Of a DNA stretch of 64,000 nt, positions 26,711 to 59,966 are shown piece by piece. Origin of the DNA: a virus; the IMG/VR virus record IMGVR_UViG_3300042890_000947, positions 22,230-86,229 of that record; one strand, 5' to 3'. The position numbers and the translations under genes are program-made. The notes below the pieces were generated by a model, which was given only the letters and a program-made list of their open reading frames with translations, did no database searches and had not been told where the DNA came from. Within the stretch, counting starts at the first letter, position 1. The number at the start of each line of letters is the position of its first letter.

Positions 26711-26783
26711 CATGCGGCCAGAGCATAGCAGGTATGCGGAATGAACCCTTGAAAATCGGGGTTGCCATCCCCATCTATAGTAT
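26711..26783 (+). promoter_or_regulatory. 73-bp composite early promoter, copy 1
   Basis: ATGC-N7-GCAT-N7-ATGC, then TTGAAA-N7-TTGC-N7-ATCTATAGTAT; 4 ungapped copies in window. Confidence 0.8.
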
Positions 26784-27897: not shown

Positions 27898-28086
27898 ATG
27901 AAAGTTTATGCTGCGGTTGGTCTAACGGCTCGAATTGATTGGGCTTCTAGATCCGATATCAAAATTCTCGGCTACTACAAAACGAGAGAAGGCGCCGAGA
28001 GAAAAATTACAAAGATGAAAGAAAGTAATTCGTGGTACATGGACTGGGAAGAGTTCGGTATTGATGCAATTACAATTGAGGACTAA
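27898..28086 (+). CDS. Hypothetical protein
   Basis: ORF in early operon. Confidence 0.5.
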   Translation: MKVYAAVGLTARIDWASRSDIKILGYYKTREGAERKITKMKESNSWYMDWEEFGIDAITIED

Positions 28087-28091
28087 AACTA

Positions 28092-28601
28092 ATGGACATT
28101 AAGATCATCGGCAAGGCCAAGCACATGTGTAAGGCCGAAATCAAGTTCGCTACCGCCTTCTTTGCCAACTATGTGATGGGTGAGCGTCTAGCCAAAAACC
28201 TTGACTTTGAAATCCGTTTCGAGGATCAGGGTAAGATGGCCGAAGGGCATTGTAATCCTATTGATGCTGAACGGCGTCCTCGTTCGTTTGAGATTGGTAT
28301 CAATCCAAGACTCCAGCGTTATAAGATGCTCCAGTGTCTCGCGCATGAGATGGTTCATGTGAAGCAGTATGCCCGTGGTGAGTTGTCTTCCGAATTGATC
28401 ACCGCGAAGTGGCAGGGTAAGGTCTACAAGATTACCAATTCGTTTGAGGACTATCTCAACTATCCTTGGGAAGTGGAAGCTTATGGGCGTGACCGTTCGC
28501 TCTACCTGTTCTATCAGGTGATGTTGAAGTCGGAAAAGGTCAAGTTCAAGAACGGAAAACTTTACATCGGCGGTAAGCTGATGCGTTTCAACAAGACTTG
28601 A
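28092..28601 (+). CDS. Zincin-like metallopeptidase
   Basis: LAHEMVHVKQY (HExxH) and PWEVEAY. Confidence 0.75.
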   Translation: MDIKIIGKAKHMCKAEIKFATAFFANYVMGERLAKNLDFEIRFEDQGKMAEGHCNPIDAERRPRSFEIGINPRLQRYKMLQCLAHEMVHVKQYARGELSSELITAKWQGKVYKITNSFEDYLNYPWEVEAYGRDRSLYLFYQVMLKSEKVKFKNGKLYIGGKLMRFNKT

Positions 28602-28632
28602 CAAACCGATTGGATAGTGCTAATATATAAAC

Positions 28633-28860
28633 ATGATGACAAAGCAACGGAATATTCAAGTCGGTGATCTGGTTCATGTTCGTACGGAATACAAGTACGG
28701 CGCACGACACAGTGTCTCTATCAAGTCTGGAAGGGTTATTAAAAGTGAGCGACATGATCATAAAGATACTTTTCGTTTATACACTGGCAATCCTCAGTAC
28801 CCCGTTTCTGTTATCGCATTTGAACGGGTCACTGGTATTAAGCTTCGCGAGGTCGCGTAA
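28633..28860 (+). CDS. Hypothetical protein
   Basis: Preceded by TTGACA-N18-TAATAT. Confidence 0.5.
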   Translation: MMTKQRNIQVGDLVHVRTEYKYGARHSVSIKSGRVIKSERHDHKDTFRLYTGNPQYPVSVIAFERVTGIKLREVA

Positions 28861-29048
28861 TGGTTAGGTCTTATGATGTAGATTTTTATGTTCTTGACAA
28901 TCGTGCTGGATTCATGCTATACTGTTTTGAAGAAGATGATTGTGTCCATGAGCAGTTCTACCGCAATTCGGATGATGCTCACTATGTTGGCCATAAGTTT
29001 CTTGATGGATGTTATGTCAAGGGTTATATTCTTGAGGATGTAGCATAA
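28860..29048 (+). CDS. Hypothetical protein
   Basis: Coupled start, GAGG RBS. Confidence 0.5.
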   Translation: MVRSYDVDFYVLDNRAGFMLYCFEEDDCVHEQFYRNSDDAHYVGHKFLDGCYVKGYILEDVA

Positions 29049-29058
29049 ATAAAAAACT

Positions 29059-29135
29059 GGTTCCGTAGTTCAACTGGATAGAGCAGTCGCCTTCTAAGCG
29101 ACGAGTTGGGGGTTCGAATCCCTCCGGAACCGCCA
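29059..29135 (+). tRNA. tRNA-Arg(TCT)
   Basis: GTCGC-CTTCTAA-GCGAC; TTCGAAT; CCA. Confidence 0.95.
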
Positions 29136-29136
29136 T

Positions 29137-29219
29137 GTCCCCTTGGTGTAATCGGTAGCCACGGCAGACTTAAAATCTGCTTCTTCGGAGTGCCAGTTCG
29201 AGTCTGGCAGGGGACACCA
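29137..29219 (+). tRNA. tRNA-Leu(TAA)
   Basis: GCAGA-CTTAAAA-TCTGC; V-arm; CCA. Confidence 0.95.
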
Positions 29220-29224
29220 ATCAA

Positions 29225-29300
29225 GCGCCTATAGCTCAATGGTTAGAGCTGACGGCTCATAACCGTCTGGTTCCGGGTTCGAATCCTGGTGGGCGCACCA
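29225..29300 (+). tRNA. tRNA-CAT, Ile2 (lysidine)-like
   Basis: GACGG-CTCATAA-CCGTC; body resembles bacterial Ile2. Confidence 0.8.
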
Positions 29301-29316
29301 AATAATGAGGAAAGTA

Positions 29317-29532
29317 ATGAGAGTCCAAATGTCTGTTTTTCGTTCCGATGATATGGATCTCAAAGCTATTGTATATTACAATCCTCATAATGATCAGTAT
29401 GAAATCGATTATTGTAAAAATGGATTCTTAGTAACGACCGAATCATATCAAGATCGAGGTCTTATTCATCATGAAGATGCGGCCGAGAACTATGTATATG
29501 GAATCAAAAAGATTGAAGGTAAAATGTCCTAA
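29317..29532 (+). CDS. Hypothetical protein
   Basis: GAGG RBS; EDAAENYVYG motif. Confidence 0.55.
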   Translation: MRVQMSVFRSDDMDLKAIVYYNPHNDQYEIDYCKNGFLVTTESYQDRGLIHHEDAAENYVYGIKKIEGKMS

Positions 29533-29625
29533 ATGTAAGAAGACTTTCAAAGGAGATGATTATATCGATGCTCTTTTGAATTGTCCGTACTATACATGTG
29601 GACTGAAACAATCTACAGTGAATAA

Positions 29626-29717
29626 TGGCGTGGGTGTTGGTACACAAGAGGGCCTTATAAACCCTTTAGCAGTAGATGACTGTTCTCGACTAGGATCGAA
29701 ACCTAGCACGCCAACCA
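29626..29717 (+). tRNA. Non-canonical tRNA with TAT (Ile) anticodon, 4-nt D-loop, long V-arm
   Basis: TGGCGTG/CACGCCA-A-CCA; GTGT-TGGT-ACAC; loop CTTATAA; AGCAGT/ACTGTT; CTAGG-ATCGAAA-CCTAG. Confidence 0.7.
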
Positions 29718-29733
29718 AATTAGGAAGATGAAG

Positions 29734-29934
29734 ATGATTACGAAGATGGAAATGAATATCGGTGAGATTTTGGATCTTGCTGCTTGGCTTGAAAAGCACG
29801 GCCTAAAGCGAACACACCGAGTTGTAATCGAACAGGAATGTGGCAACGGTATTGGTACCGCGACACAGGCCAGAGTTAAGACTACTGAATCGGAAGGCAT
29901 CTTTATCGATATCACCGATTATGATGTATGGTGA
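29734..29934 (+). CDS. Hypothetical protein
   Basis: NGIG..DITDYDVW. Confidence 0.55.
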   Translation: MITKMEMNIGEILDLAAWLEKHGLKRTHRVVIEQECGNGIGTATQARVKTTESEGIFIDITDYDVW

Positions 29935-29938
29935 TGAT

Positions 29939-30118
29939 ATGAACGAATGGCTTGATAAAGGACTTTTCTGTATTGGTTGGGTCAGCTTTATGTGGATTGC
30001 TGATTTGCTTTTGAGTAATACTGGCGTTACGAGTTATGGCGCTCTAATGATTGGTGCTCTATCTATTACAGCGGTAGGACTTATTAAACAATATCGGGCG
30101 AGTGTGGTGAAACGGTAG
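29939..30118 (+). CDS. Small membrane protein running into tRNA-Leu
   Basis: Two hydrophobic segments. Confidence 0.4.
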   Translation: MNEWLDKGLFCIGWVSFMWIADLLLSNTGVTSYGALMIGALSITAVGLIKQYRASVVKR

Positions 30119-30179
30119 ACACAGTGGTCTCAAAATCCACCGCGTAAGCATGGGGGTTCAAGTCCCTCCACTCGCACCA
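30098..30179 (+). tRNA. tRNA-Leu(CAA)
   Basis: Loop CTCAAAA; V-arm; CCA. Confidence 0.9.
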
Positions 30180-30198
30180 AAAATAAATTTTATAATAC

Positions 30199-30229
30199 TT
30201 GACAATCCAGATTGGATGTGATATAAATA
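30199..30229 (+). promoter_or_regulatory. Dual sigma70 / late promoter
   Basis: TTGACA-N17-TATAAATA; shares GGATGTGATATAAATA with the hsp20 promoter. Confidence 0.75.
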
Positions 30230-30266
30230 AGAATACAAGTTAATAAGAGAATCGTTCCAACAAAAA

Positions 30267-30350
30267 ATGAAACACCATTATTGCCCCATTGCGAATAATC
30301 AACCAAAAGGTCGTCCATCATGGGCAGGCAACGGGGGTTCTATGATTTGA
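30267..30350 (+). CDS. Putative attenuator leader peptide (27 aa)
   Basis: MKHHYCPIANNQPKGRPSWAGNGGSMI; its 3' end GGGGTTCT is complementary to the terminator 5' arm. Confidence 0.6.
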   Translation: MKHHYCPIANNQPKGRPSWAGNGGSMI

Positions 30351-30376
30351 GTCTTGTTACAGACTTAGATTCTTAA

Positions 30377-30408
30377 AGAACCCCGATGAGGAAACTCTCG
30401 GGGTTTTT
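30377..30408 (+). terminator. Rho-independent terminator (attenuator)
   Basis: AGAACCCCGA-T-GAG-GAAA-CTC-TCGGGG followed by TTTTT. Confidence 0.85.
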
Positions 30409-30411
30409 AGT

Positions 30412-30484
30412 TATGCGAAATAAACATAGCTGCCATGCAAAACAAAACATTGAAAAACAGACTTGCAGGCATTATCTATAGTAT
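30412..30484 (+). promoter_or_regulatory. 73-bp composite early promoter, copy 2
   Basis: Ungapped match to copies at 26711, 59768, 59894. Confidence 0.75.
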
Positions 30485-30510
30485 GTGAGAGATTGAGAGA
30501 AGGAGGGGCG

Positions 30511-30705
30511 ATGCTTCACTTCGTAGGGTTTAAAGGCGACGAATACCTTCGGGCTTGTCGCGTGTTTGGTTTACCAGATTTCATCCATCCGGGATGGGAT
30601 CTTCGTGCTCGACGGGAGATAACTCCCGATGATACCGTTGTCTTTGCTACTGGCTCTTTTAATCAGGAGCCGCGTAGTCGATCCTTTAGTGATCTCAAAG
30701 AATAA
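30511..30705 (+). CDS. Hypothetical protein
   Basis: AGGAGG RBS; LHFVGF..VFGLPDFIH..WD. Confidence 0.65.
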   Translation: MLHFVGFKGDEYLRACRVFGLPDFIHPGWDLRARREITPDDTVVFATGSFNQEPRSRSFSDLKE

Positions 30706-30756
30706 CGGCTTGCTGATTTACATTGTTAAGTTCCTAGAGATAACGAAAGTTATCTC

Positions 30757-30850
30757 TTCCGAGACACACCAGACAGGACGACAGGTTGGTTCGAAACGTC
30801 TGCGTCCGATACTAGCTTATCGAACTAAACTAGCTGGTGTGTCGCGGAAG
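30757..30850 (+). ncRNA. Candidate kissing-loop three-way-junction RNA A
   Basis: CTTCCG-A-GACACACCAG/CTGGTGTGTC-G-CGGAAG closing stem; loops GTTCGA and TCGAAC complementary. Confidence 0.6.
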
Positions 30851-30863
30851 TGATAAGTTTTAT

Positions 30864-30940
30864 TCCCTTGGAGCCGGGTTGGTACCGGCACCTGACTGTT
30901 AATCAGGCCGTTATAGGTTCGAATCCTATTAAGGGAGCCA
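30864..30940 (+). tRNA. tRNA-Asn(GTT)
   Basis: CCTGA-CTGTTAA-TCAGG; G73 CCA. Confidence 0.92.
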
Positions 30941-30944
30941 ATAT

Positions 30945-31019
30945 GCGGGTATAGCTCAGAGGTAGAGCGTCACGTTGCCAACGTGAATGTCGTGGGTTCG
31001 ATCCCCATTTCCCGCTCCA
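30945..31019 (+). tRNA. tRNA-Gly(GCC)
   Basis: TCACG-TTGCCAA-CGTGA; U73. Confidence 0.92.
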
Positions 31020-31023
31020 ATAC

Positions 31024-31098
31024 GCGCCAGTAGCTCAGTGGTAGAGCAGCGGTCTCTTAAACCGACGGTCAAGAGTTCAATTCTCTTCTGGCACACCA
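31024..31098 (+). tRNA. tRNA-Lys(CTT)
   Basis: Loop CTCTTAA; CCA. Confidence 0.9.
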
Positions 31099-31104
31099 AT
31101 CCAT

Positions 31105-31178
31105 GGTCTTGTAGTGAATGGATATCACACCTCTCTGTCTAAGAGGAGTAACGAGTTTGAGCCTCGTCAAGATCGCCA
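31105..31178 (+). tRNA. tRNA-Asp(GTC)
   Basis: CCTCT-CTGTCTA-AGAGG; G73. Confidence 0.88.
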
Positions 31179-31371
31179 ATAACAGCCCACCTCTTGACAA
31201 TGTGGGTGCCTGACATACGGGCTTGGGGAGAGATATAAAGTATTAAGATATGAAACTCCTCCACCATTTAGTACGCCGAGCATCCTTCGGGATACGCTGG
31301 GTAGGGTTGACGGCACCCTCGCAGTACGAAAGCCGTTATTCTATTAGCGACACAGTGTAACGCTACAGTTT

Positions 31372-31396
31372 TATAAATACTCTCAAAAGGAGTATT
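31372..31396 (+). promoter_or_regulatory. Late promoter overlapping an SD-sequestering hairpin
   Basis: TATAAATA; AATACTCT-CAAAA-GGAGTATT hides GGAG. Confidence 0.75.
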
Positions 31397-31398
31397 CT

Positions 31399-31719
31399 AT
31401 GAAAATCTGTAAACACTGTGGAGAAGAACACAACATGCGCGGCCTATCGTGTAGAGTTTGTAAGGACAATCTGTATAACTATAACATGAACAGAAATGAT
31501 GTTCTTACTCTACATGAGAGTCAAAATGGCAAATGTGCTTTGTGTGATAAAGAAGTTAAGATGTTTAATGGTGGTAGTTACAAAAGCGGTAACGTTGACC
31601 ATTGCCATAAAAATGGAACAGTAAGAGGCATACTTTGCCATCAATGTAACACTTTCGTTGGTTACATGGAAAATAAAGTTCCGTTCTATAAGTTAAAAAG
31701 TTATCTGGGTGTAGCGTAA
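31399..31719 (+). CDS. Endonuclease VII-like HNH (homing-type) nuclease
   Basis: QNGKCALC..VDHCHKNGTVRGILCHQCN. Confidence 0.85.
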   Translation: MKICKHCGEEHNMRGLSCRVCKDNLYNYNMNRNDVLTLHESQNGKCALCDKEVKMFNGGSYKSGNVDHCHKNGTVRGILCHQCNTFVGYMENKVPFYKLKSYLGVA

Positions 31720-31782
31720 TCTGGTTATCGCGTCTGCTTTGGGAGCAGAAGACTGAGGGTTCAAATCCTTCCACCCAGACCA
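31705..31782 (+). tRNA. tRNA-Pro(TGG) copy 1
   Basis: TCTGC-TTTGGGA-GCAGA. Confidence 0.92.
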
Positions 31783-31856
31783 ATTTAGTAAGCCCCTAAA
31801 GGGAACGCCGGGTCACTCCCGAGCCGAAGCGAAGGAAACTTCGCCGAGTTTTAAAA

Positions 31857-31935
31857 CAGTGTGTAGGGGAGTCTGGCCGTCCCCACTACCCTTGGAAGGT
31901 AGGGATCGGTGGTTCAAATCCACCTACACTGACCA
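31857..31935 (+). tRNA. tRNA-Pro(TGG) copy 2 (A37)
   Basis: CTACC-CTTGGAA-GGTAG; C1-G72, A73. Confidence 0.85.
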
Positions 31936-31938
31936 ATC

Positions 31939-32027
31939 GCTGGATTACTATAGAGATGGTAGGTGCACTCTGTCTCTTGTGCGTACCAGTAGAGGACAGG
32001 CTGACACCTCTATAAAAACGCGCCAGC
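31939..32027 (+). ncRNA. Candidate kissing-loop RNA B
   Basis: GCTGG/CCAGC and TATAGAG/CTCTATA closing stems; loops CTGTCT and GGACAG complementary. Confidence 0.5.
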
Positions 32028-32033
32028 AATTCT

Positions 32034-32108
32034 ATCAGTGTGGTGTAGCGGTAACATGCCGGTCTCCAAAACCGTGCGTCTAGGGTTCAAATCCTTACAC
32101 TGATGCCA
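32034..32108 (+). tRNA. tRNA-Trp(CCA)
   Basis: Loop CTCCAAA; G73. Confidence 0.9.
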
Positions 32109-32113
32109 ATAAT

Positions 32114-32188
32114 GGGGTGCTGATGATAACGGGAGCATGCCGCCCTTGCAAGGCGGACGACAGGGTTCGATTCCCTGGCATTCCACCA
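32114..32188 (+). tRNA. tRNA-Ala(TGC)
   Basis: CCGCC-CTTGCAA-GGCGG; G3:U70. Confidence 0.9.
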
Positions 32189-32306
32189 GTTTGACTTGAT
32201 TACTTACGCTTGAGACACCATCCGCTTGAGGTTGGAATAATGTTATCAAGATAAGTCGCCAAATATCAAGCACATTCGTACCGACCGCGTGAGGTACAGC
32301 AGTTTT

Positions 32307-32392
32307 GGGTGAGCGGCAACGACGGCGAGTTGCGGCGGACTGTAAATCCCCTGTCTAGTACTTAGTTGGTTCGAATCCAACCTCACCCACCA
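32307..32392 (+). tRNA. tRNA-Tyr(GTA)
   Basis: Loop CTGTAAA; V-arm; A73. Confidence 0.88.
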
Positions 32393-32398
32393 AATTAT

Positions 32399-32610
32399 CC
32401 AGTATTCTAGACATGCTGGAGAGACCTCGCAAGACTATCAGAGGGGAATGCTTGCTAATATCGGATTGCTTACCTCAATAAGCGCAATGGGCTGAACCGA
32501 TAGGGTGTAAAGAATAAGAACTTGCCGAAAGGCATACGAAGCAGGCCTAGTGGTCGGTAGAAATGGCAGGGCATGAGCCCGTGCGCTCTGGGTGTAGAAA
32601 TACCCGACCA
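32399..32610 (+). ncRNA. Candidate ~210-nt multi-stem ncRNA ending in CCA
   Basis: Non-coding gap between tRNAs with many stems (CCAGTA/TGCTGG, TATCGG/CCGATA, TGCC-GAAA-GGCA, GGTC/GACC-A). Confidence 0.5.
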
Positions 32611-32620
32611 ATTAATTTAC

Positions 32621-32695
32621 TGGCGCATAGCTCAGAGGTAGAGCACTGTCCTGATAAGACAGGGGTGGAAGGATCGTTACCTTCTGTGCCAACCA
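32621..32695 (+). tRNA. tRNA-Ile(GAT)
   Basis: CTGTC-CTGATAA-GACAG. Confidence 0.9.
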
Positions 32696-32696
32696 A

Positions 32697-33086
32697 TTAC
32701 TGCTGACTTGGAGCAATGTCGTATGGAATACGCTTCTTCTTTTTCTTCGGTGGCGGTGTAGGCTTAGGCACAGGCATTACAACAGGCTTCTGCTTTGCTG
32801 CCTTAAGTTCCTTGTTGAGTTGATTGATAACAAGTCTTTGATCCTCAACCTTTGTATTAAGATAATCAACATCTTCCGTTAGAGTTGTGATCTGACCTTC
32901 AAGATCAGTCTTCTCTTTGATAACAACTTCAAGGTTATGTTGTGCTATTGATGCTTGTTCCTGATATTGCTTAGCCGAGGCATAATAGTTTCTGGCTTCA
33001 AATAAAAGATAGAACGTTGTGAAAACTGAAATGGCACAAAGCAAAAGTAATAACAGTGTTGGCATAGTTCTAAGTCCTTTTTTCAT
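32697..33086 (-). CDS. Membrane-anchored coiled-coil protein (antisense within tRNA array)
   Basis: N-term TM, heptad region, Pro/Lys tail; fills the gap between two tRNAs. Confidence 0.6.
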   Translation of the reverse strand: MKKGLRTMPTLLLLLLCAISVFTTFYLLFEARNYYASAKQYQEQASIAQHNLEVVIKEKTDLEGQITTLTEDVDYLNTKVEDQRLVINQLNKELKAAKQKPVVMPVPKPTPPPKKKKKRIPYDIAPSQQ

Positions 33087-33129
33087 AGTGCTAATCCTGT
33101 AGTAGACATTTAAAGTATATAGTTAATAT

Positions 33130-33203
33130 TGGGAGATCGTCTAAAGGTAGGACGCAGGATTTTGATTCCTGCTATCTAGGTTCGAATCCTAGTCTCCCAG
33201 CCA
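33130..33203 (+). tRNA. tRNA-Gln(TTG)
   Basis: Loop TTTTGAT; U1-A72. Confidence 0.92.
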
Positions 33204-33206
33204 ATT

Positions 33207-33281
33207 GAACCCTTAACTCAGTGGTAGAGTAGCGGGCTTTTAATCCGTCTGTCCTGGGTTCGAATCCCAGAGGGTTCTCCA
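33207..33281 (+). tRNA. tRNA-Lys(TTT)
   Basis: Loop CTTTTAA; U73. Confidence 0.88.
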
Positions 33282-33286
33282 AATAT

Positions 33287-33361
33287 GGTTCCATCGACTA
33301 TCGGTTAGGTCAGGTCCCTTTCAAGGATCAGAGGCGGGTTCGACTCCCGCTGGAACTACCA
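33287..33361 (+). tRNA. tRNA-Glu(TTC)
   Basis: Loop CTTTCAA. Confidence 0.9.
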
Positions 33362-33372
33362 ATCAAGGAGTT

Positions 33373-33507
33373 ATGATGTTCAAACTCACTTCATTATCTG
33401 CTATCGGAGCTAAGTCGTTGGCCAAGCAGTATGTGAGATTCGGTTACAAACTGGTCTCACAAATTTATGACAAGAAGAAAGAGATATACATTAGTACATT
33501 TAAGTAA
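33373..33507 (+). CDS. Hypothetical protein (44 aa)
   Basis: AGGAG RBS; MMFKLTSLSAIGAKSLAKQYVRFGYKLVSQ... Confidence 0.5.
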   Translation: MMFKLTSLSAIGAKSLAKQYVRFGYKLVSQIYDKKKEIYISTFK

Positions 33508-33510
33508 TAA

Positions 33511-33586
33511 GGCGGATAGGACAAAGAAGGTAAGTCGTCGGTCTCATAAGCCGAAGGAGTTGGGGCAGATCCAACATCCGCAACCA
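33511..33586 (+). tRNA. tRNA-CAT, initiator-like with atypical T-loop
   Basis: 1:72 mismatch; TCGGT-CTCATAA-GCCGA; T-loop GGCAGAT. Confidence 0.7.
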
Positions 33587-33587
33587 A

Positions 33588-33662
33588 CCCGTTTTAGTTC
33601 AATGGTTAGAACGCATGTCTGTGGAACATGATACGGTGGTTCGATTCCACCACTCGGGACCA
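33588..33662 (+). tRNA. tRNA-His(GTG), no G-1, A73
   Basis: CATGT-CTGTGGA-ACATG; two acceptor-stem mismatches. Confidence 0.8.
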
Positions 33663-33715
33663 CTTTGTTCATTCATTTGTACATATAGACGCTTCGCGTA
33701 CAAACGAATAGACAT

Positions 33716-33789
33716 TGCCGGGTCGTCTAACGGTAGGACGCATGACTCTGACTCATGCTATCGTGGTTCGAATCCATGCCTGGCAGCCA
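33716..33789 (+). tRNA. tRNA-Gln(CTG)
   Basis: CATGA-CTCTGAC-TCATG. Confidence 0.9.
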
Positions 33790-33805
33790 GAATAAATAAG
33801 TTAAT

Positions 33806-33881
33806 GGAGCCGTAGCAAAACGATTAATGCGCGGGACTGCAAATCCTTGAGGTATCAGTTTGAATCTGATCGGCTCCTCCA
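33806..33881 (+). tRNA. tRNA-Cys(GCA)
   Basis: Loop CTGCAAA; U73. Confidence 0.85.
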
Positions 33882-33886
33882 ATAAT

Positions 33887-33978
33887 GCATTCGTATCCCC
33901 CTCCGCTACGAACGGAGAGAAAGGTAACTGGAAATGGTATAACAACTAATGCAGGTTCGAATCCTGTCGAATGCTCCA
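33887..33978 (+). tRNA. Non-canonical tRNA-Arg(ACG) lacking a D-arm at the normal position
   Basis: GCATTCG/CGAATGC-T-CCA; CTCCG-CTACGAA-CGGAG; long variable region; GCAGG-TTCGAAT-CCTGT. Confidence 0.7.
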
Positions 33979-33994
33979 TTAAAGGAAAAAATTA

Positions 33995-34342
33995 ATGAAG
34001 CTTATTAAAACTTTAATTGCTACATCATTTTTATTTGTGGCAATGCCTTCTGCTCATGCTACCGTTGCTTCCTGGTATGATTGTGTGAAACCGGGTGAAT
34101 GTAGTAAGAGCAAGATTACTGCTAACGGGGAAAGATTTAACCCCAATGCGTTGACAGCGGCGCATAAGACTCTTCCTTTCGGTACAAAAGTTCGTATTAC
34201 CTATAAGGGAAGGTCAGTTGTCGTGAGAATAAATGATCGCGGCCCATTTATTAAGGGTCGTCATATTGATCTTTCCAGGGCTGCTGCTCGGAAGATTGGA
34301 TGTCATGGAGTTTGTAAAGTACAAATAGCTGTGATAAAATAA
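33995..34342 (+). CDS. RlpA-like double-psi beta-barrel lytic transglycosylase
   Basis: Signal peptide; [31 protein letters not shown]. Confidence 0.9.
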
Positions 34343-34441
34343 TATGTGTTAGAGGTTTGTGAGTGGACTGTAATTGACTGGAAACTCTCGTTAATCATAA
34401 AAGTGGAGGGCGTAACCACTATAAGAAATCGCATCGAATTT

Positions 34442-34529
34442 GGATAGATGGCCGAGCGGCTGAAGGCGCCAGTCTTGAAAACTGGAGAACAGAAATGTTT
34501 CGTGGGTTCGAATCCTACTCTATCCGCCA
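34442..34529 (+). tRNA. tRNA-Ser(TGA)
   Basis: CCAGT-CTTGAAA-ACTGG; V-arm; G73. Confidence 0.95.
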
Positions 34530-34532
34530 CTT

Positions 34533-34638
34533 TCGGGACGCAGCCAGAGTAACTGAGACAACTGGCTTAATGAGTAACTGCTGGCAAAGCCGCTAAATGA
34601 CTTTCTCAGGTCGTGCAGAGGCTCACGTACCCGATCCA
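34533..34638 (+). ncRNA. Candidate kissing-loop RNA C with acceptor-like stem and UCCA end
   Basis: TCGGG-ACG/CGT-A-CCCGA-TCCA; loops CTGAGA and TCTCAG complementary. Confidence 0.6.
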
Positions 34639-34655
34639 ATTAAAAGGAAAACAAT

Positions 34656-34802
34656 ATGAGTAAAGACTGTGGTTGCGGAAGAAGTCCAACTGGAAAATGT
34701 ATTGGTTGGCATGGGTTGACAAACGAAGATTATTCTGCTAAACTTAAAGAATACGAAAAGAAGCAGTTAATGGAATCTGCCCCACAACTACTAAAGGAAT
34801 AA
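34656..34802 (+). CDS. CDGSH-like iron-sulfur miniprotein (48 aa)
   Basis: CGCGRSPTGKCIGWH; AAGGA RBS. Confidence 0.6.
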   Translation: MSKDCGCGRSPTGKCIGWHGLTNEDYSAKLKEYEKKQLMESAPQLLKE

Positions 34803-34804
34803 AT

Positions 34805-34880
34805 GTGTTCTTGGTGAAGCTGGTGCTCACGTTCGCCTGAAGAGCGAAAGAACTCTGTTCGATCCAGAGAGAACACACCA
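34805..34880 (+). tRNA. tRNA-Phe(GAA)
   Basis: TTCGC-CTGAAGA-GCGAA. Confidence 0.88.
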
Positions 34881-34958
34881 AATCGCATATATTATAAATA
34901 AGTATATACACTATGTTGTATGTTACTAATACGTAATCGTGAAAAGAGGAATACAAAA

Positions 34959-35585
34959 ATGAAGTTTATTGTTTTAATCGGCGCAGTAGCACTGGCCGCA
35001 ACTACTTTCACTCCACTCGCTCATGCCAGTGCCGCTCTTGGCGGCCTTGACAAGCAATGTTATAATGCTCTTCGCAAGGAATGGTCTGGTTGTAATAAGG
35101 GATCAGGCGCAGATAATAAGAATCTTCCAGACTTTAAGTTTAATCCGAAGTCTCACGGCAAGCCAGGAAAGCCAGGCGGTAACGGTGGCAATGGTAATGG
35201 CAACGGCGGTACCGATAACGGCGGTGATGGCAACAACGGCGGTGGCGATAATGGCAACGGAGGCGACAACGGTAACGGAGGCGACAATGGAGGCGATAAC
35301 GGTAACGGTGGTGATAACGGTAATGGCGGTGACAATGGCAACGGTGGCAATAATGGCGGCGATGGTGGTTGCCAAGGAGCTGGCGGCGGTAACTGCGGCA
35401 TAGGAAACGGTGGCGGTGGTGGTAATGGAACCGGCAACGAAGGTAATGGCAACGGCCCTGGAGATAATAGCAATCAGCCCGACAATAACAACGGCGGTGG
35501 TAATAACTCAAACTCTCCTCAACTCAACAGCAATGACATAAAGGGTTTTGATCCTTCCACCGGTCTATACGGCCCTGGTACCTAA
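34959..35585 (+). CDS. Exported Gly/Asn/Asp-rich repeat protein
   Basis: Signal peptide; (GGDNGN)n; late TATAAATA at 34893. Confidence 0.7.
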   Translation: MKFIVLIGAVALAATTFTPLAHASAALGGLDKQCYNALRKEWSGCNKGSGADNKNLPDFKFNPKSHGKPGKPGGNGGNGNGNGGTDNGGDGNNGGGDNGNGGDNGNGGDNGGDNGNGGDNGNGGDNGNGGNNGGDGGCQGAGGGNCGIGNGGGGGNGTGNEGNGNGPGDNSNQPDNNNGGGNNSNSPQLNSNDIKGFDPSTGLYGPGT

Positions 35586-35594
35586 TCACACAAA

Positions 35595-35670
35595 GCGTCT
35601 TGGGAGGTGTTGGCAATCTCATCGGTCTCATAAGCCGAACAACCCAGTTCGAAACTTGGAAGACGCACCA
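35595..35670 (+). tRNA. tRNA-Met(CAT), elongator-like
   Basis: Paired G1-C72; loop CTCATAA. Confidence 0.8.
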
Positions 35671-35716
35671 AACTAAATACTTCACGGTCAATCAAGGCCA
35701 ATAATGAGGTATTAAC

Positions 35717-35890
35717 ATGCTAAACACACTCGTTGTATTAGTTCTAGTCGCTGCCGTTCTCTGGGTTCTCTGGGAAATGTGGCAGAATGGTTGGGATCTT
35801 AAGAAGGGTGGCGCTGCTATCGTAGCCGCTGCTGCTGCTTGGTGGGTCTGGGTTCACGATTCAGTATCTTCACTAATTTCTGGAATGTAA
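35717..35890 (+). CDS. Small Trp-rich two-TM protein (57 aa)
   Basis: GAGG RBS; MLNTLVVLVLVAAVLWVLWEMW..AAAAAWWVWVH. Confidence 0.6.
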   Translation: MLNTLVVLVLVAAVLWVLWEMWQNGWDLKKGGAAIVAAAAAWWVWVHDSVSSLISGM

Positions 35891-35906
35891 ATAAAGAACC
35901 GTCGTT

Positions 35907-36001
35907 GGCCCGTGACGGTATATAAATCCTCGGGGTGTAAGTTCCTGCCTTGACCCTTCCATAAGGAATCACTGATCGCAGTAACCGCTAACGGGCCTCC
36001 A
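35907..36001 (+). ncRNA. Candidate acceptor-stem RNA D ending in UCCA
   Basis: GGCCCGT/ACGGGCC-TCCA; internal pseudoknot TTCCT/AGGAA; no T or anticodon arm. Confidence 0.5.
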
Positions 36002-36009
36002 ATTTAAAT

Positions 36010-36208
36010 GCCGATTCCGACGGGAATCGGTCGAGTGCAAGGAAATGGCTGGACGCAAAGACCGGCTAACTTGGCTAGATGGTGTGGTGCCCGCGCGTGA
36101 TCTACGAGAGTAGAAGACGTGTCGTTTCCGACCAAGAAAATCTAGGCTGTCGCGTTGAACAGGTATCTGGGCCGTGACTTGTGGGTGTACCCGAATCCCA
36201 CCTCACCT
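36010..36208 (+). ncRNA. Candidate ~200-nt multi-stem ncRNA
   Basis: GCCGATTCC-GACG-GGAATCGGT, TGGCTGG/CCGGCTA, CTAGAT/ATCTAG, CTAC-GAGA-GTAG, GTGGG/CCCAC. Confidence 0.5.
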
Positions 36209-36228
36209 TATTAACTATAGGAGCATTA

Positions 36229-36726
36229 ATGCCTGGACCATTATGGGAAGCGACTAGAGACTTACACCATGCTTGTGAAGCGCATCCTGTTGGTGCTGCT
36301 ATGGCAAGTGGTAGTCCACCTATGAAATGGTATGCTGACTGGCTTTCCGCTCTTTACACTATACACTGGGAAGTTGATCAACATATTCCGAAAGTCATCC
36401 ATAGAACGGAAAGAGTTCAAAATGACTTGACAGCCACAAACTGTCCTGCTAATATAATACGTGCTGCTAACAAATATACCAATTCCTTGATAACGGAAAA
36501 AGATATTGCAGGCGCTGCTTATGTTCTTACTGGAGCGCACCTGATGGGCGGCGAGATTATGCGTAGGCGTCTTGTTGGTTATCCTACTACACATCTGGAA
36601 TGGGATGATCGTAAAGCTGCACTTGTGGAACTAAACAAGTTTAGAGAGCGTGAAGAGATTGCAGAGGAATCTAAAAACTGTTTTCATGCTCTTCTAAAGA
36701 TTATGGACGAAATTAAGGCCGATTAG
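36229..36726 (+). CDS. Heme oxygenase-like protein
   Basis: LWEATRDLHHACE (proximal His), YVLTGAHLMGGEIM. Confidence 0.75.
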   Translation: MPGPLWEATRDLHHACEAHPVGAAMASGSPPMKWYADWLSALYTIHWEVDQHIPKVIHRTERVQNDLTATNCPANIIRAANKYTNSLITEKDIAGAAYVLTGAHLMGGEIMRRRLVGYPTTHLEWDDRKAALVELNKFREREEIAEESKNCFHALLKIMDEIKAD

Positions 36727-36792
36727 CTCAGTGGTAGTAGCGTCTCGTTTACACCGAGAATGTCGGGAGTTCGAATCTCTCATCGGCTACCA
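36717..36792 (+). tRNA. tRNA-Val(TAC)
   Basis: TCTCG-TTTACAC-CGAGA. Confidence 0.92.
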
Positions 36793-36797
36793 ATAAC

Positions 36798-36879
36798 GCG
36801 GATATGGTGAAATGGCAGACACGCTAGTCTTAGGAACTAGTGCTTCGGCGTGGGGGTTCAAGTCCCTCTATCCGCACCA
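36798..36879 (+). tRNA. tRNA-Leu(TAG)
   Basis: CTAGT-CTTAGGA-ACTAG. Confidence 0.95.
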
Positions 36880-36884
36880 ACTAC

Positions 36885-36958
36885 GCCTCTATAGTATAAA
36901 GGTAGTACACGGCTTTGGTAAAGCCGAGACACAGGATCGATACCTGTTAGAGGCACCA
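36885..36958 (+). tRNA. tRNA-Thr(GGT)
   Basis: CGGCT-TTGGTAA-AGCCG. Confidence 0.9.
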
Positions 36959-36973
36959 TATAAATAGTTACAT

Positions 36974-37060
36974 GCTGGCTTGGCTGAACGGCTGAAGGCA
37001 ACGGTTTTGTAATCCGTCGGAGTAATCCCATTGCAGGTTCGAATCCTGTGGCCAGCACCA
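36974..37060 (+). tRNA. tRNA-Thr(TGT) with long variable arm
   Basis: Loop TTTGTAA; V region CGGAGTAATCCCATT; Ser/Leu-type D-arm. Confidence 0.8.
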
Positions 37061-37079
37061 TTTTTTTAGGAACTTAATA

Positions 37080-37574
37080 ATGATTAGAAAGCATCTCGAC
37101 CTAGACGCCGTTCGTGCGTTTATTCAATCACAATCTCCAGAAACAAAGGTATATCTTGGTGGCGACTCCGAACGCTTTCAAATCGATGGCGTGTGGTATG
37201 CTGACTACATCAATGTGGTAGTTGTTCATAAGAACGGCAAGAACGGTTGTAAGGTATTTGGTGGTATCGTGCGTGAGCGCGACTATGACCAGAACAAGGA
37301 CAAGCCACGGATGCGTTTGATGAATGAAGTAATGAAGACTGCTTCGCTATATCTGGAACTATACGATGTGCTTGAGGATCGTGAAACAGAAATCCACTTG
37401 GACATTAATCCAGACATGAAGCATGGTTCTTCATGCGTTATCAACGAAGCTGTTGGCTACATTCGTGGTATGTGTAACATCATACCTCTGGTTAAGCCAA
37501 ATGCTTGGGCCGCATCTTACTGTGCGGATCGATATAAGGACGCTATTCAACACGCACATAAGGCGGTAGCATAA
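37080..37574 (+). CDS. RNase H-like YkuK family protein
   Basis: YLGGDS, RLMNEV, EIHLDIN, VKPNAWAASYCADR. Confidence 0.8.
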   Translation: MIRKHLDLDAVRAFIQSQSPETKVYLGGDSERFQIDGVWYADYINVVVVHKNGKNGCKVFGGIVRERDYDQNKDKPRMRLMNEVMKTASLYLELYDVLEDRETEIHLDINPDMKHGSSCVINEAVGYIRGMCNIIPLVKPNAWAASYCADRYKDAIQHAHKAVA

Positions 37575-37771
37575 TGTTTATCAAGTTAACGAATATGGTT
37601 CCTGAACGAAAAGGTGATCCTCTATACCTCAATGTAAATCATATCAAGGTGGTATATGAGGATCACGTTGAAGGAGGCAGTCTTTTGACTCAAGTCCATG
37701 CAGAGAATGTTACATGGTCTGTCGAAGAAAGTCTTGGTGAAGTAATGAAGTTGATTGGAGAAGCAGTTTAA
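37574..37771 (+). CDS. FlbD-like small protein
   Basis: MFIKLT..LYLNVNHI..VEESLGEVMKLI. Confidence 0.5.
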   Translation: MFIKLTNMVPERKGDPLYLNVNHIKVVYEDHVEGGSLLTQVHAENVTWSVEESLGEVMKLIGEAV

Positions 37772-37772
37772 A

Positions 37773-38198
37773 ATGGCAAGATTTTTCGTTATGATTTGTG
37801 TTGTTATCTTCGCAATCTTTACGTTGGTTGTCGGAGCTAAAGCGGAAGTATTCATTACGATTGATAAGTCGGATCAAACAATGTATGTTGAAACTTTGAC
37901 CGATACATATGAATGGCCAATTTCTACGGGTCGAGAAGGATACAATACACCGTCTGGAGAATATCGTCCGTATCTACTTAAGAAACTTCACTATAGCAAG
38001 AAGTATGATAATGCGCCGATGCCTTGGTCAATCTTCTTTCACGAAGGATACGCAATTCATGCGACTGGCGAAGTAGAGCGTCTTGGATCTCCAGCATCTC
38101 ACGGTTGTGTTAGACTTGAACTGAGAAATGCTCGTTGGTTATATCGCCTAATAGATGAAAGTGGCAAAGAGAATACATATATACGTGTAATAGAATAA
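37773..38198 (+). CDS. L,D-transpeptidase (YkuD family)
   Basis: Signal/TM; ISTG..TPSG, APMP, AIHAT, ASHGCVRL. Confidence 0.9.
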   Translation: MARFFVMICVVIFAIFTLVVGAKAEVFITIDKSDQTMYVETLTDTYEWPISTGREGYNTPSGEYRPYLLKKLHYSKKYDNAPMPWSIFFHEGYAIHATGEVERLGSPASHGCVRLELRNARWLYRLIDESGKENTYIRVIE

Positions 38199-38199
38199 T

Positions 38200-38289
38200 G
38201 GAAGGTTGGCCGAGTGGTCTAAGGCACCTCACTGCTAACGAGACGTACCTTAATCGGTACCGAGGGTTCGAATCCCTCACCTTCCGCCA
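38200..38289 (+). tRNA. tRNA-Ser(GCT)
   Basis: Loop CTGCTAA; V-arm; G73. Confidence 0.92.
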
Positions 38290-38321
38290 TATAAATAGTG
38301 ATATAATTTAGAGGAAATAAA

Positions 38322-38765
38322 ATGGAAGAATTAGTAGAAAAGATGAAGGCGGTATTAGCAAGTACCTTTGCTGCTGGACTTAAAGCTCAGTCGTATCACT
38401 GGAATGTAATTGGTTCCGATTTCCCACAACTACATGATTTCTTCGCAACTATCTATGAGGACTATCAGGGTGCAGTAGATCCACTAGCGGAACACATTCG
38501 TCAGTTGGACGCTTTTGCACCTCAGACATTGACAAGGATGAAAGAATTGTCTATAATAATGGAGGATGAGAAAATTCCTACTGCGGAAAAGATGATTGCC
38601 AATCTTCAGACCTGTAACGAGAATCTTTCTAACTTAGTTATTGAAGCGTATGAAATGGCAGAAGCACAGAAGATGTATGGTCTTTCCAACTATCTTCAGG
38701 ATCGTATTACTGCTCAAATGAAACTTAACTGGATGATCAAGGCAACAATGGGCAAGAAGTCCTAA
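38322..38765 (+). CDS. dps: Dps ferritin-like DNA protection protein
   Basis: HWNVIGSDFPQLHDFF..DPLAEHIRQL; late TATAAATA at 38290. Confidence 0.9.
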   Translation: MEELVEKMKAVLASTFAAGLKAQSYHWNVIGSDFPQLHDFFATIYEDYQGAVDPLAEHIRQLDAFAPQTLTRMKELSIIMEDEKIPTAEKMIANLQTCNENLSNLVIEAYEMAEAQKMYGLSNYLQDRITAQMKLNWMIKATMGKKS

Positions 38766-38779
38766 AAAGGATATTTATT

Positions 38780-39448
38780 ATGAACGAACTTATGCAGATA
38801 CACCAAAATGTAGATCATCCATCAGACAAGTGGAGCAACTACTTTGACATTTACGAAAAGCACCTTAAAGATTATCGAGGTAAAAACGTTACACTAGTTG
38901 AAGTTGGTGTACAAAAAGGTGGATCATTGGATATGTGGCACACATACTTTGGGCCACATAGTAAAATTATTGGTATTGATGTGGATCCCGAGTGTGCCAA
39001 GTTAATATATCCAAATAAAAATATTAGTGTGACTATAGGCAATCAAGAAAGTCCTGCTTTTTGGGATGAGTTTTTGAGCAACAATACTGATATTGACATA
39101 TTCATTGATGACGGCGGTCATACGATGGGTCAGCAGATTGTGACTTTTGAAAAAGTTTTTCCTAAGCTGAAAACAGGAAGCATCTTTATATGCGAAGACA
39201 CTCACACATCTTATTGGCCTGAATTGGGCGGTGGTCTTAGAAGAGAATCATCATTCTTAGAATATGCTAAAGACTTTGTTGACGTTCTTCACAACAATTG
39301 GAAAAGAGAAACAACCGAATCTTTAGAAAAGAAAAGCGCCATGGCGTTTGATGGCTTATCTGGTCTATATTTCTACGATAGTGTGGTTGTTTTTGAAAAG
39401 TTTGGCAAACAACCTATGAATAGAATACTGATACCTGGCAAACAATAA
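38780..39448 (+). CDS. Class I SAM methyltransferase (sugar O-methyltransferase-like)
   Basis: EVGVQKGGSL, GIDVD, IDDGGH, EDTHTSYW. Confidence 0.8.
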   Translation: MNELMQIHQNVDHPSDKWSNYFDIYEKHLKDYRGKNVTLVEVGVQKGGSLDMWHTYFGPHSKIIGIDVDPECAKLIYPNKNISVTIGNQESPAFWDEFLSNNTDIDIFIDDGGHTMGQQIVTFEKVFPKLKTGSIFICEDTHTSYWPELGGGLRRESSFLEYAKDFVDVLHNNWKRETTESLEKKSAMAFDGLSGLYFYDSVVVFEKFGKQPMNRILIPGKQ

Positions 39449-39450
39449 TT

Positions 39451-40263
39451 GTGAAAAACAAATTATATTATCATATATTTTTGTCTGATGATTATGGTAC
39501 GTGGTCTTCCATTTTTATGGAACAAGTTAAACTAATGGAAGACCACAATCTAATTGACGCTCTAGATGAAATCAATATAGGTTGCGTATACACATCAGAT
39601 CACGCTAAGGAAACTTTTGAGCTTTTAGCGACCTCCATATTTAAAAATCCAAATATAACTTACTATCCTAATACTATAGGATCTAGTGAAGATGTATATT
39701 TCGATTCGAAACTAAATTCTTACTATCATTCGGCTGTTACTGAAAACGTAACTATGAAAAAGATATTTGATGATAGTCAGAAAGAAGACTTTAACATTTT
39801 ATATCTTCATAGTAAAGGTGTAACGTCAGTCGCAAGACATTTAAAAACACACAACATATTTGCTTATCTGTTATATTTCAATTGGAGACAATATTTACAA
39901 TGGGCAGTTATTGAAAATTGGAAAAAATGTGTCAGGGCTTTAGATAAAGGCTATGACATAGCATCCGCAAATTTTATGACTGATCCAGCTCCACATGTAA
40001 GCGGCGATATTTGGTGGTCAAAAGCATCATATATAAGAAATTTAGATGACCCTACTGAACTTGATTGGTATTTTAATATGAGAGAAAGGTCTCATAATCA
40101 GGATTTTAAATATAACGGATCTTTGAGACATAGAGATGAAATGTGGATTTGCTGTCGAAACAATTTCAAGTTTTATCATATACATCTTCTAGATGAGAAA
40201 GATAATCCCGCTTATAATATTCTGCCTAGAAAAAACTACACAACAACAGGAGAAAAGTCATGA
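39451..40263 (+). CDS. Glycosyltransferase-like protein, paralog of N-term of 682-2154
   Basis: YYHIFL, LYLHSKGV, WAVIENWK, HVSGDIWWSKASY, RHRDEMWI. Confidence 0.65.
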   Translation: MKNKLYYHIFLSDDYGTWSSIFMEQVKLMEDHNLIDALDEINIGCVYTSDHAKETFELLATSIFKNPNITYYPNTIGSSEDVYFDSKLNSYYHSAVTENVTMKKIFDDSQKEDFNILYLHSKGVTSVARHLKTHNIFAYLLYFNWRQYLQWAVIENWKKCVRALDKGYDIASANFMTDPAPHVSGDIWWSKASYIRNLDDPTELDWYFNMRERSHNQDFKYNGSLRHRDEMWICCRNNFKFYHIHLLDEKDNPAYNILPRKNYTTTGEKS

Positions 40264-59767: not shown

Positions 59768-59840
59768 TATGCGTCCAGCGTATGGCTGGTATTCGTTTTT
59801 AGACGTTGAAATTCCGGGTTGCCAACCCCATCTATAGTAT
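59768..59840 (+). promoter_or_regulatory. 73-bp composite early promoter, copy 3
   Basis: Ungapped match to the other copies. Confidence 0.8.
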
Positions 59841-59893: not shown

Positions 59894-59966
59894 CATGCGT
59901 CCGATGCATAGCAGATATGCGTAAACTGCCCTTGAAAAACCGACTTGCCGATCTTATCTATAGTAT
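59894..59966 (+). promoter_or_regulatory. 73-bp composite early promoter, copy 4
   Basis: Ungapped match to the other copies. Confidence 0.8.

Follow-up and report, generated by a model that had tools for sequence, protein, structure and literature searches.

The window analysed here, a stretch of 64,000 nucleotides, is part of an 86-kb IMG/VR viral record that represents about half a genome according to CheckV. The DNA polymerase of the phage shares 51% identity with those of T4-like cyanomyoviruses, and the source is therefore regarded as a distant, uncultured T4-like phage. In the window, 29 tRNA genes were detected by ARAGORN, 28 of them within 29059-38289, and the array decodes nearly all amino acids. 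A small unit made up of a promoter (P1), a short leader open reading frame (ORF), several RNA pairing elements and an intrinsic terminator lies between tRNA-Leu(CAA) and tRNA-Asn(GTT) (Table 1). Downstream of it, 24 tRNAs were called by ARAGORN and one more was identified with Rfam, so that the large array described in an original prediction from the letters of the window is indeed present, but its number of 26 downstream tRNAs has to be corrected.

Table 1. Features of the leader unit and its flanks (positions in the window)
Feature	Position	Strand	Description
tRNA-Leu(CAA)	30098-30179		upstream flank of the leader unit
P1	30199-30229	+	-35 TTGACA (30199-30204), 17-nt spacer, TG-extended -10 TATAAA (TG 30219-30220, hexamer 30222-30227)
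5' leader	30234-30266	+	A-rich; putative start site at about 30234
Leader ORF	30267-30350	+	27 codons plus TGA, MKHHYCPIANNQPKGRPSWAGNGGSMI
Region 1	30281-30292	+	GCCCCATTGC, codons 5-9; predicted to pair with region 2 when the full-length RNA folds
Hairpin A	30313-30329	+	in the ORF; inner stem GTCCA/TGGGC, loop TCA, plus outer stem
Region 2	30334-30341	+	GGGGTTCT, codons 23-25; 5' strand of the predicted antiterminator
Hairpin 1	30344-30371	+	core AGTCT...AGACT (30351-30366); stop codon in the 5' foot
Region 3	30377-30384	+	AGAACCCC; would pair with region 2 in the antiterminator and with region 4 in the terminator
Intrinsic terminator	30379-30408	+	hairpin 30379-30405, -17 kcal/mol, then U-run (five U) to 30408
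P2 promoter-like module	30412-30484	+	directly behind the terminator; about 75 bp
tRNA-Asn(GTT)	30864-30940		downstream flank of the leader unit

Some further elements were observed in this part of the window. The final 21 nt of the upstream ORF, which encodes a small hydrophobic protein and ends at 30118, are overlapped by tRNA-Leu(CAA) (30098-30118). Within the tRNA region, a match to the manA RNA (RF01745) was found at 36013-36209 on the plus strand, with 58.1 bits against a gathering score of 55.2. A tRNA-like element at 33511-33583 (plus strand) was scored with 35.5 bits by Rfam but not called by ARAGORN, and it overlaps the only other hairpin-plus-U-run candidate of the array. Many relatives carry a 92-nt tRNA-Ile(TAT)-like gene upstream of tRNA-Leu(CAA) (ARAGORN; L002, L008, L009, L017, L030, L040, L053, L063 and L173), for which ARAGORN gave no call in the window.

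The unit was found in 17 distinct full-length versions and two incomplete ones in uncultured T4-like relatives, down to about 70% identity, and is located between the same two tRNA genes in every relative with both flanks present. These relatives were reached by four routes. The neighbouring 64-aa ORF led to 21 loci, nine of them with the unit; the hairpin 1 pattern to 27 stretches, of which 16 were homologous and 11 unrelated ones were set aside; the mid-ORF pattern to 21 stretches, 17 homologous and four unrelated and set aside; and BLAST of five viral records to three with the unit. On metagenome contigs, the mid-ORF pattern additionally yielded at least six homologues among the 116 matches listed, the other 110 being unrelated, and further homologues beyond the 17 probably exist. 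As two of the searches used conserved motifs as patterns, the apparent invariance of these motifs is inflated, and L053, L063 and L172, to which different routes led, show variation in these motifs. Megablast and blastn of 30090-30720 against a phage collection, from which near-identical records were possibly excluded, returned no DNA match. Two short assembled contigs, one from a wastewater run and one from a freshwater RNA-library run, span 30167/30169-30392 with L006-type differences, and close relatives are thus present in both kinds of sample. Both contigs end at 30392, and 30406-30479 is not covered by the assembled contigs of any public run; this gap says nothing on transcription, because a four-copy repeat and strain differences fall there.

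The interval between the unit and tRNA-Asn holds the 64-aa ORF in the clade of the window phage and about 250 nt in the clade of L017 and L042, located at 2586-2840 in L042 and likewise present in L017, L030, L031, L063 and L172-L174. In these 250 nt, behind P2, neither a conserved ORF nor an Rfam match was found, and the interval probably represents a structured RNA that has not been described so far. In L040, the equivalent position received an odd 'tRNA-???' call from ARAGORN.

The predicted promoter P1 was read directly in the sequence; it was not listed by the promoter scan, which demands a T at position 6 of the hexamer. An A/T-rich stretch lies immediately upstream of its -35 element. 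By motif search, a TATAAATA box was found at the -10 element (30222-30229), which is the T4-type late promoter motif as given in the relevant passages of PMC2984593. The window holds six such boxes (2191, 30222, 31372, 34893, 36959 and 38290), all of plus-strand orientation and five located in the tRNA region, and their number is not above the shuffle expectation (six vs. a mean of 4.75). A sigma-70-like promoter together with the TAAATA box is present in all homologues whose upstream DNA was examined. In some relatives, the sigma-70 hexamers are located about 8-9 nt further upstream with the TAAATA box unmoved, which suggests that P1 consists of two overlapping promoters, one early-type and one T4-late-type. 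The 5' leader that follows carries indels of 8-20 nt among the homologues, which are not multiples of three. No Shine-Dalgarno sequence precedes the ATG of the leader ORF in the window phage and in L006; neighbouring genes of the window phage have strong ones, and AGGA or GAGG is found 3-7 nt upstream of the ATG in L002, L128, L007 and L063.

The 27-codon ORF with its 14 different amino acids was found at the predicted place. The diversity of these amino acids had been proposed as a signal, but about 14 types are just what is expected of a random 27-mer, by a hand estimate from typical amino-acid frequencies. The prediction that no run of one codon occurs was borne out, as the leader of the window phage contains only the doublets HH and NN and no run is present in any homologue. 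The frame is open in all 17 distinct homologues over 26-28 codons, its start codon is conserved and its stop codon is placed in every homologue at the 5' foot of hairpin 1, 3-6 nt behind region 2. Five to six separate indels within the ORF are all multiples of three (chance about 0.001-0.004), and a 1-nt insertion in L008, two codons ahead of the stop, merely moves the stop. No in-frame stop arose from at least 67 substitutions, compared with 3.3 expected (P=0.036) when 5% of possible changes give a stop and 67 is taken as the minimal number of substitutions. The other two frames and the minus strand contain stops among the homologues; a 43-aa minus-strand ORF (30190-30321) with the look of a membrane peptide was rejected as a candidate, as it is interrupted in most of them.

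Substitutions are spread evenly over the codon, with 15, 14 and 15 of 27 columns being variable at positions 1, 2 and 3 and a pN/pS of about 0.5-1. By BLOSUM62, codons that differ score 0.26 on average in frame 0, compared with 0.84 and -0.16 in the other frames, and no constraint at the amino-acid level was detected in the ORF, its residues being no better conserved than those of the other two frames. The frame is under selection and the peptide sequence is not. As the frame is kept and the residues are free, the ORF looks like a translated leader rather than a gene for a functional peptide, and the conservation of the frame argues that its translation matters. From these comparisons, the leader is presumably translated.

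A possible correspondence between the residues of the leader and the downstream tRNAs was considered and rejected. The leader of the window phage lacks Leu, Val, Thr and Phe, whose tRNAs are located in the distal array, but L006, which is 97% identical and has the same tRNA order, has Thr in its leader and other relatives have two to five such residues. This codon-matching test is without power, because the array covers nearly all amino acids. An enrichment of His, Tyr, Asn, Asp and Lys early in the leader is strong in the window phage and L008 and nearly absent in L042, and it is confounded by base composition.

The terminator hairpin and its U-run were confirmed where they had been predicted. 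By a hairpin-plus-U-run scan, this is the sole strong intrinsic terminator on the plus strand within 28000-40000. The sequences of its upper stem differ among the homologues and the terminator fold persists. Covariation counts for the terminator on alignment A4 were discarded as uninformative, and per-sequence folds were used instead, because the 3' arm is poorly aligned between clades. In hairpin A, 89.8% of cells are paired and one pair is compensatory (CG in six, UA in five and UG in four sequences); its loop takes a 3-nt insertion in L009 and a T-to-G change (Ser to Ala) in L172, and the L017 clade has lost two of the inner pairs. The partner of region 2 in the full fold is the upstream C-run of codons 5-7. 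In RNA that ends immediately behind region 2, codons 4-7 are the site to which the G-run pairs in 11 of the 17 homologues, the other six using different sites, and this pairing of regions 1 and 2 is the weakest element of the unit and not well conserved.

The predicted complementarity between the last codons of the leader (CGGGGGTTCT, 30332-30341) and the base of the terminator is present, amounting to 8 nt between GGGGTTCT and AGAACCCC, and the same two segments are complementary in all 17 distinct homologues. The RNAalifold consensus of 12 homologues is the antiterminator formed by regions 2 and 3 around hairpin 1, not the terminator. Among 16 sequences, 94% of the cells of the 2:3 stem are paired, compared with 19-60% when the partners are slid by one to three columns, and one pair is compensatory (AU in ten, GC in six). 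The same six GC sequences also lose one inner pair of the stem, and the compensatory change is a single evolutionary event. As calculated with ViennaRNA, RNA cut just before the 3' arm of the terminator folds best with regions 2 and 3 paired in all 17 homologues, and the full-length RNA folds best as the terminator in 16 of 17. Local energies range from -20 to -27 kcal/mol for the antiterminator state and from -28 to -32 kcal/mol for the terminator state, the latter being 3-10 kcal/mol more stable. With these two mutually exclusive predicted folds, the unit looks like a ribosome-operated switch.

Controls were performed on single sequences. For ten of the 12 homologues, the observed pairing was attained by 2-8 of 200 dinucleotide-shuffled versions of the upstream part; for the remaining two, the numbers were 34 and 51 of 200. 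Among the other hairpin-plus-U-run candidates of the window, 5 of 16 have at least six of the first eight arm bases paired upstream in the nascent fold. Since complementarity in a single sequence is common, the argument rests on conservation and on the frame: conserved pairing and the kept frame are the signal above chance, and single-sequence complementarity is only mildly above it.

It is tentatively proposed that the unit is a ribosome-dependent transcription attenuator at the one strong terminator of the tRNA region, a reading whose probability is judged to fall somewhat short of even. RNA polymerase would start at the overlapping early-type and T4-late-type P1 and transcribe the 27-codon leader. 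A closely following ribosome that reaches the stop codon (30348-30350) would cover region 2 and open hairpin 1; region 3 would then be free to pair with region 4, the terminator would form and an RNA of about 175 nt would end near 30408. If the ribosome were more than about ten codons behind, or had never loaded, regions 2 and 3 would pair once region 3 had been made. This would withhold the base of the terminator and allow read-through into P2, the 64-aa ORF and the structured spacers, and from there into tRNA-Asn and the genes behind it. In this model, the exchange of the two folds would switch termination in the direction described, and the signal would be the general speed of decoding and not the supply of any single amino acid. 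Counted against attenuation are the missing Shine-Dalgarno sequence in the window phage and L006, the missing regulatory codon run, the position of P2 before the regulated genes, the weak 1:2 pairing, the more stable terminator state, the frequency of such upstream pairing in single sequences, the single compensatory event and near-invariant blocks in the middle of the ORF that the model does not require.

P2 bears on how such a switch could act on the array. The module occurs in four copies (26711-26783, 30412-30484, 59768-59840 and 59894-59966), which were recognised by alignment of the copies; an exact pattern for it gave no match. It is made up of an upstream palindrome-like part (ATGCG..CATAGC..TATGCG), followed by TTGAA and by a conserved ATCTATAGTAT, and from this composition it may represent a phage-specific promoter class with a bound regulator. 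P2 follows the terminator in all but one relative whose downstream DNA was examined, and L041 and the incomplete L039 have a different sigma-70-like site in its place. Further promoter-like sites and TATAAATA boxes are present inside the array. The idea that the unit gates the array could not be upheld, as a conserved promoter-like module lies between the terminator and the tRNAs and more sites follow; with P2 behind the terminator, the switch would supplement the transcription of the main tRNA block and not act as its gate. The trp-like topology that had been invoked is real, and a leader ORF, an antiterminator segment in its last codons, a stop codon and a terminator are conserved in this order; the arrangement in which the regulated genes have no promoter of their own is not shared.

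The presence of a promoter, a terminator and P2 immediately thereafter would fit a stand-alone mini-gene, in which P1, the ORF and the terminator form a monocistronic gene for a peptide of 26-28 residues with a short functional motif, insulated by its terminator. The terminator would then end early transcripts from P1 and from the upstream tRNA/ORF block, a differently controlled P2 would run the main array, and the complementarity of regions 2 and 3 would be a by-product of their G-run and C-run content, as might be plausible with 5 of 16 terminator arms being paired upstream in the natural controls. Constant blocks are indeed kept in the peptide, namely N-Q, then P-[SA]-W-A, then G. However, substitutions are no more conservative in frame 0 than in the other frames, with the pN/pS given above, and Gly-to-Arg changes are tolerated in region 2 while the paired bases stay. 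All 17 homologues retain the pairing itself, in which a compensatory change has occurred, and a mini-gene is for these reasons considered unlikely.

At the level of DNA, the middle of the ORF contains the near-invariant blocks AATCAA and CCA-[TG]CA-TGGGC, which are only partly explained by hairpin A and hint at another function. These blocks are superfluous to attenuation but would be explained if the terminated 175-nt RNA were itself the product, acting in trans by base pairing or protein binding and possibly with a dual function. Such a small RNA would be in line with a strong promoter, three conserved hairpins and a U-tailed terminator, which by their sequence features would give a discrete small RNA, and with a folding energy of -54.1 kcal/mol for the 177-nt transcript (z-score -4.45). 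It would also agree with a near-invariant, single-stranded TAG(A/T)TTCT between hairpin 1 and the terminator and with hairpin 1 itself, whose stem core is invariant and whose loop is variable. As a precedent, the rnTrpL/peTrpL pair of Sinorhizobium is described in parts of PMC6614838 and PMC7298713. On the other hand, the kept frame points to translation, and the invariance of the motifs is partly a matter of ascertainment, with L053, L063 and L172 varying. With E values of up to 1 admitted, the Rfam 15 covariance models matched nothing in 30199-30410, and in the homologous stretch of L042 they gave only a chance-level miRNA match (E 0.39). A trans-acting RNA is compatible with the attenuator and both may coexist, but it is viewed as improbable.

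That the frame is a fortuitous, never-translated ORF in a non-coding spacer with a real promoter and terminator is hardly credible: the lack of a Shine-Dalgarno sequence in the window phage and the even spread of substitutions over the three codon positions would fit, but not the in-frame indels, the absence of stops, the conserved start, the stop fixed relative to hairpin 1 and the stops in the other two frames and on the minus strand.

If the attenuator exists, one might go further and regard it as a codon-agnostic sensor of decoding capacity, in which lagging ribosomes would let transcription from P1 proceed into the phage's own tRNA array; this extension is doubtful. As a conjecture, the trigger could be, for example, the depletion of host tRNAs late in infection or their cleavage by defence nucleases that target tRNAs. 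The P-[SA]-W-A motif, placed eight residues before the stop, might tune the dwelling of the ribosome at the end of the leader. If true, such a sensor would place the supply of tRNAs under feedback control and might also serve as an inducible counter-defence.

The closest classical counterparts of the unit are the leader-peptide attenuators of amino-acid operons (trpL, hisL, leuL, thrL and pheL class). Like them, the phage unit has a short leader ORF ahead of an intrinsic terminator, one strand of which is also used by an antiterminator, and its stop codon is positioned such that a terminating ribosome would mask the antiterminator strand. Unlike them, it has no codon run for a single amino acid, is followed by tRNAs and small RNAs instead of biosynthetic enzymes, has a promoter between the terminator and the genes and a poorly conserved 1:2 'protector', and resides in a phage. 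Leader ORFs that respond to general stalling are described in parts of PMC6310831 and PMC12121999 for the antibiotic-responsive ARE-ABCF and hflXr attenuators and for the toiL uORF of topAI-yjhQ. As far as these parts go, they likewise lack a codon run in their short ORF, and whether downstream transcription continues depends on the state of its translation and not on one amino acid, but they control bacterial resistance or toxin genes, some of them through Rho.

A likewise long auxiliary array, the trn L-array of Anabaena with 26 tRNA genes, is induced by translational stress according to portions of PMC8421152 and PMC10272220. In the phage, a tie between expression of the array and the state of translation is likewise proposed, whereas the control in Anabaena, according to the same portions, is exerted by the repressor TrcR on direct repeats over the -10 box; the strings 'attenuat', 'leader' and 'terminator' each occur zero times in the main text of PMC8421152. 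Overlapping early and late promoters are thought to be used by T4-like phages without MotA/AsiA, such as RB49 and cyanomyoviruses (passages of PMC2984593), and P1 resembles them in joining sigma-70-type -35 and -10 elements with a TATAAATA late box. The likeness is confined to the promoter arrangement, as those passages contain no leader ORF or switch. In Sinorhizobium meliloti, the attenuator-derived small RNA rnTrpL is accompanied by the leader peptide peTrpL (sections of PMC6614838 and PMC7298713), and by analogy the terminated leader RNA of the phage and its peptide could themselves be products.

The literature searched yielded no report of phage or bacterial tRNA genes controlled by leader-peptide attenuation. 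A leader-ORF switch of known type that would act on tRNA genes is plausible here, and it is conserved at the sequence level rather than demonstrated. Phage tRNAs have been linked, in parts of the recent work, to escape from tRNA-cleaving defences, and to our knowledge the timing and dosing of large phage tRNA arrays are largely unexplained. Should the switch be inert, the locus would still be a well-conserved small transcription unit in an uncultured clade of T4-like phages. If real, a leader-ORF switch before the main tRNA block would provide a simple coupling of tRNA supply to the decoding state of the cell.
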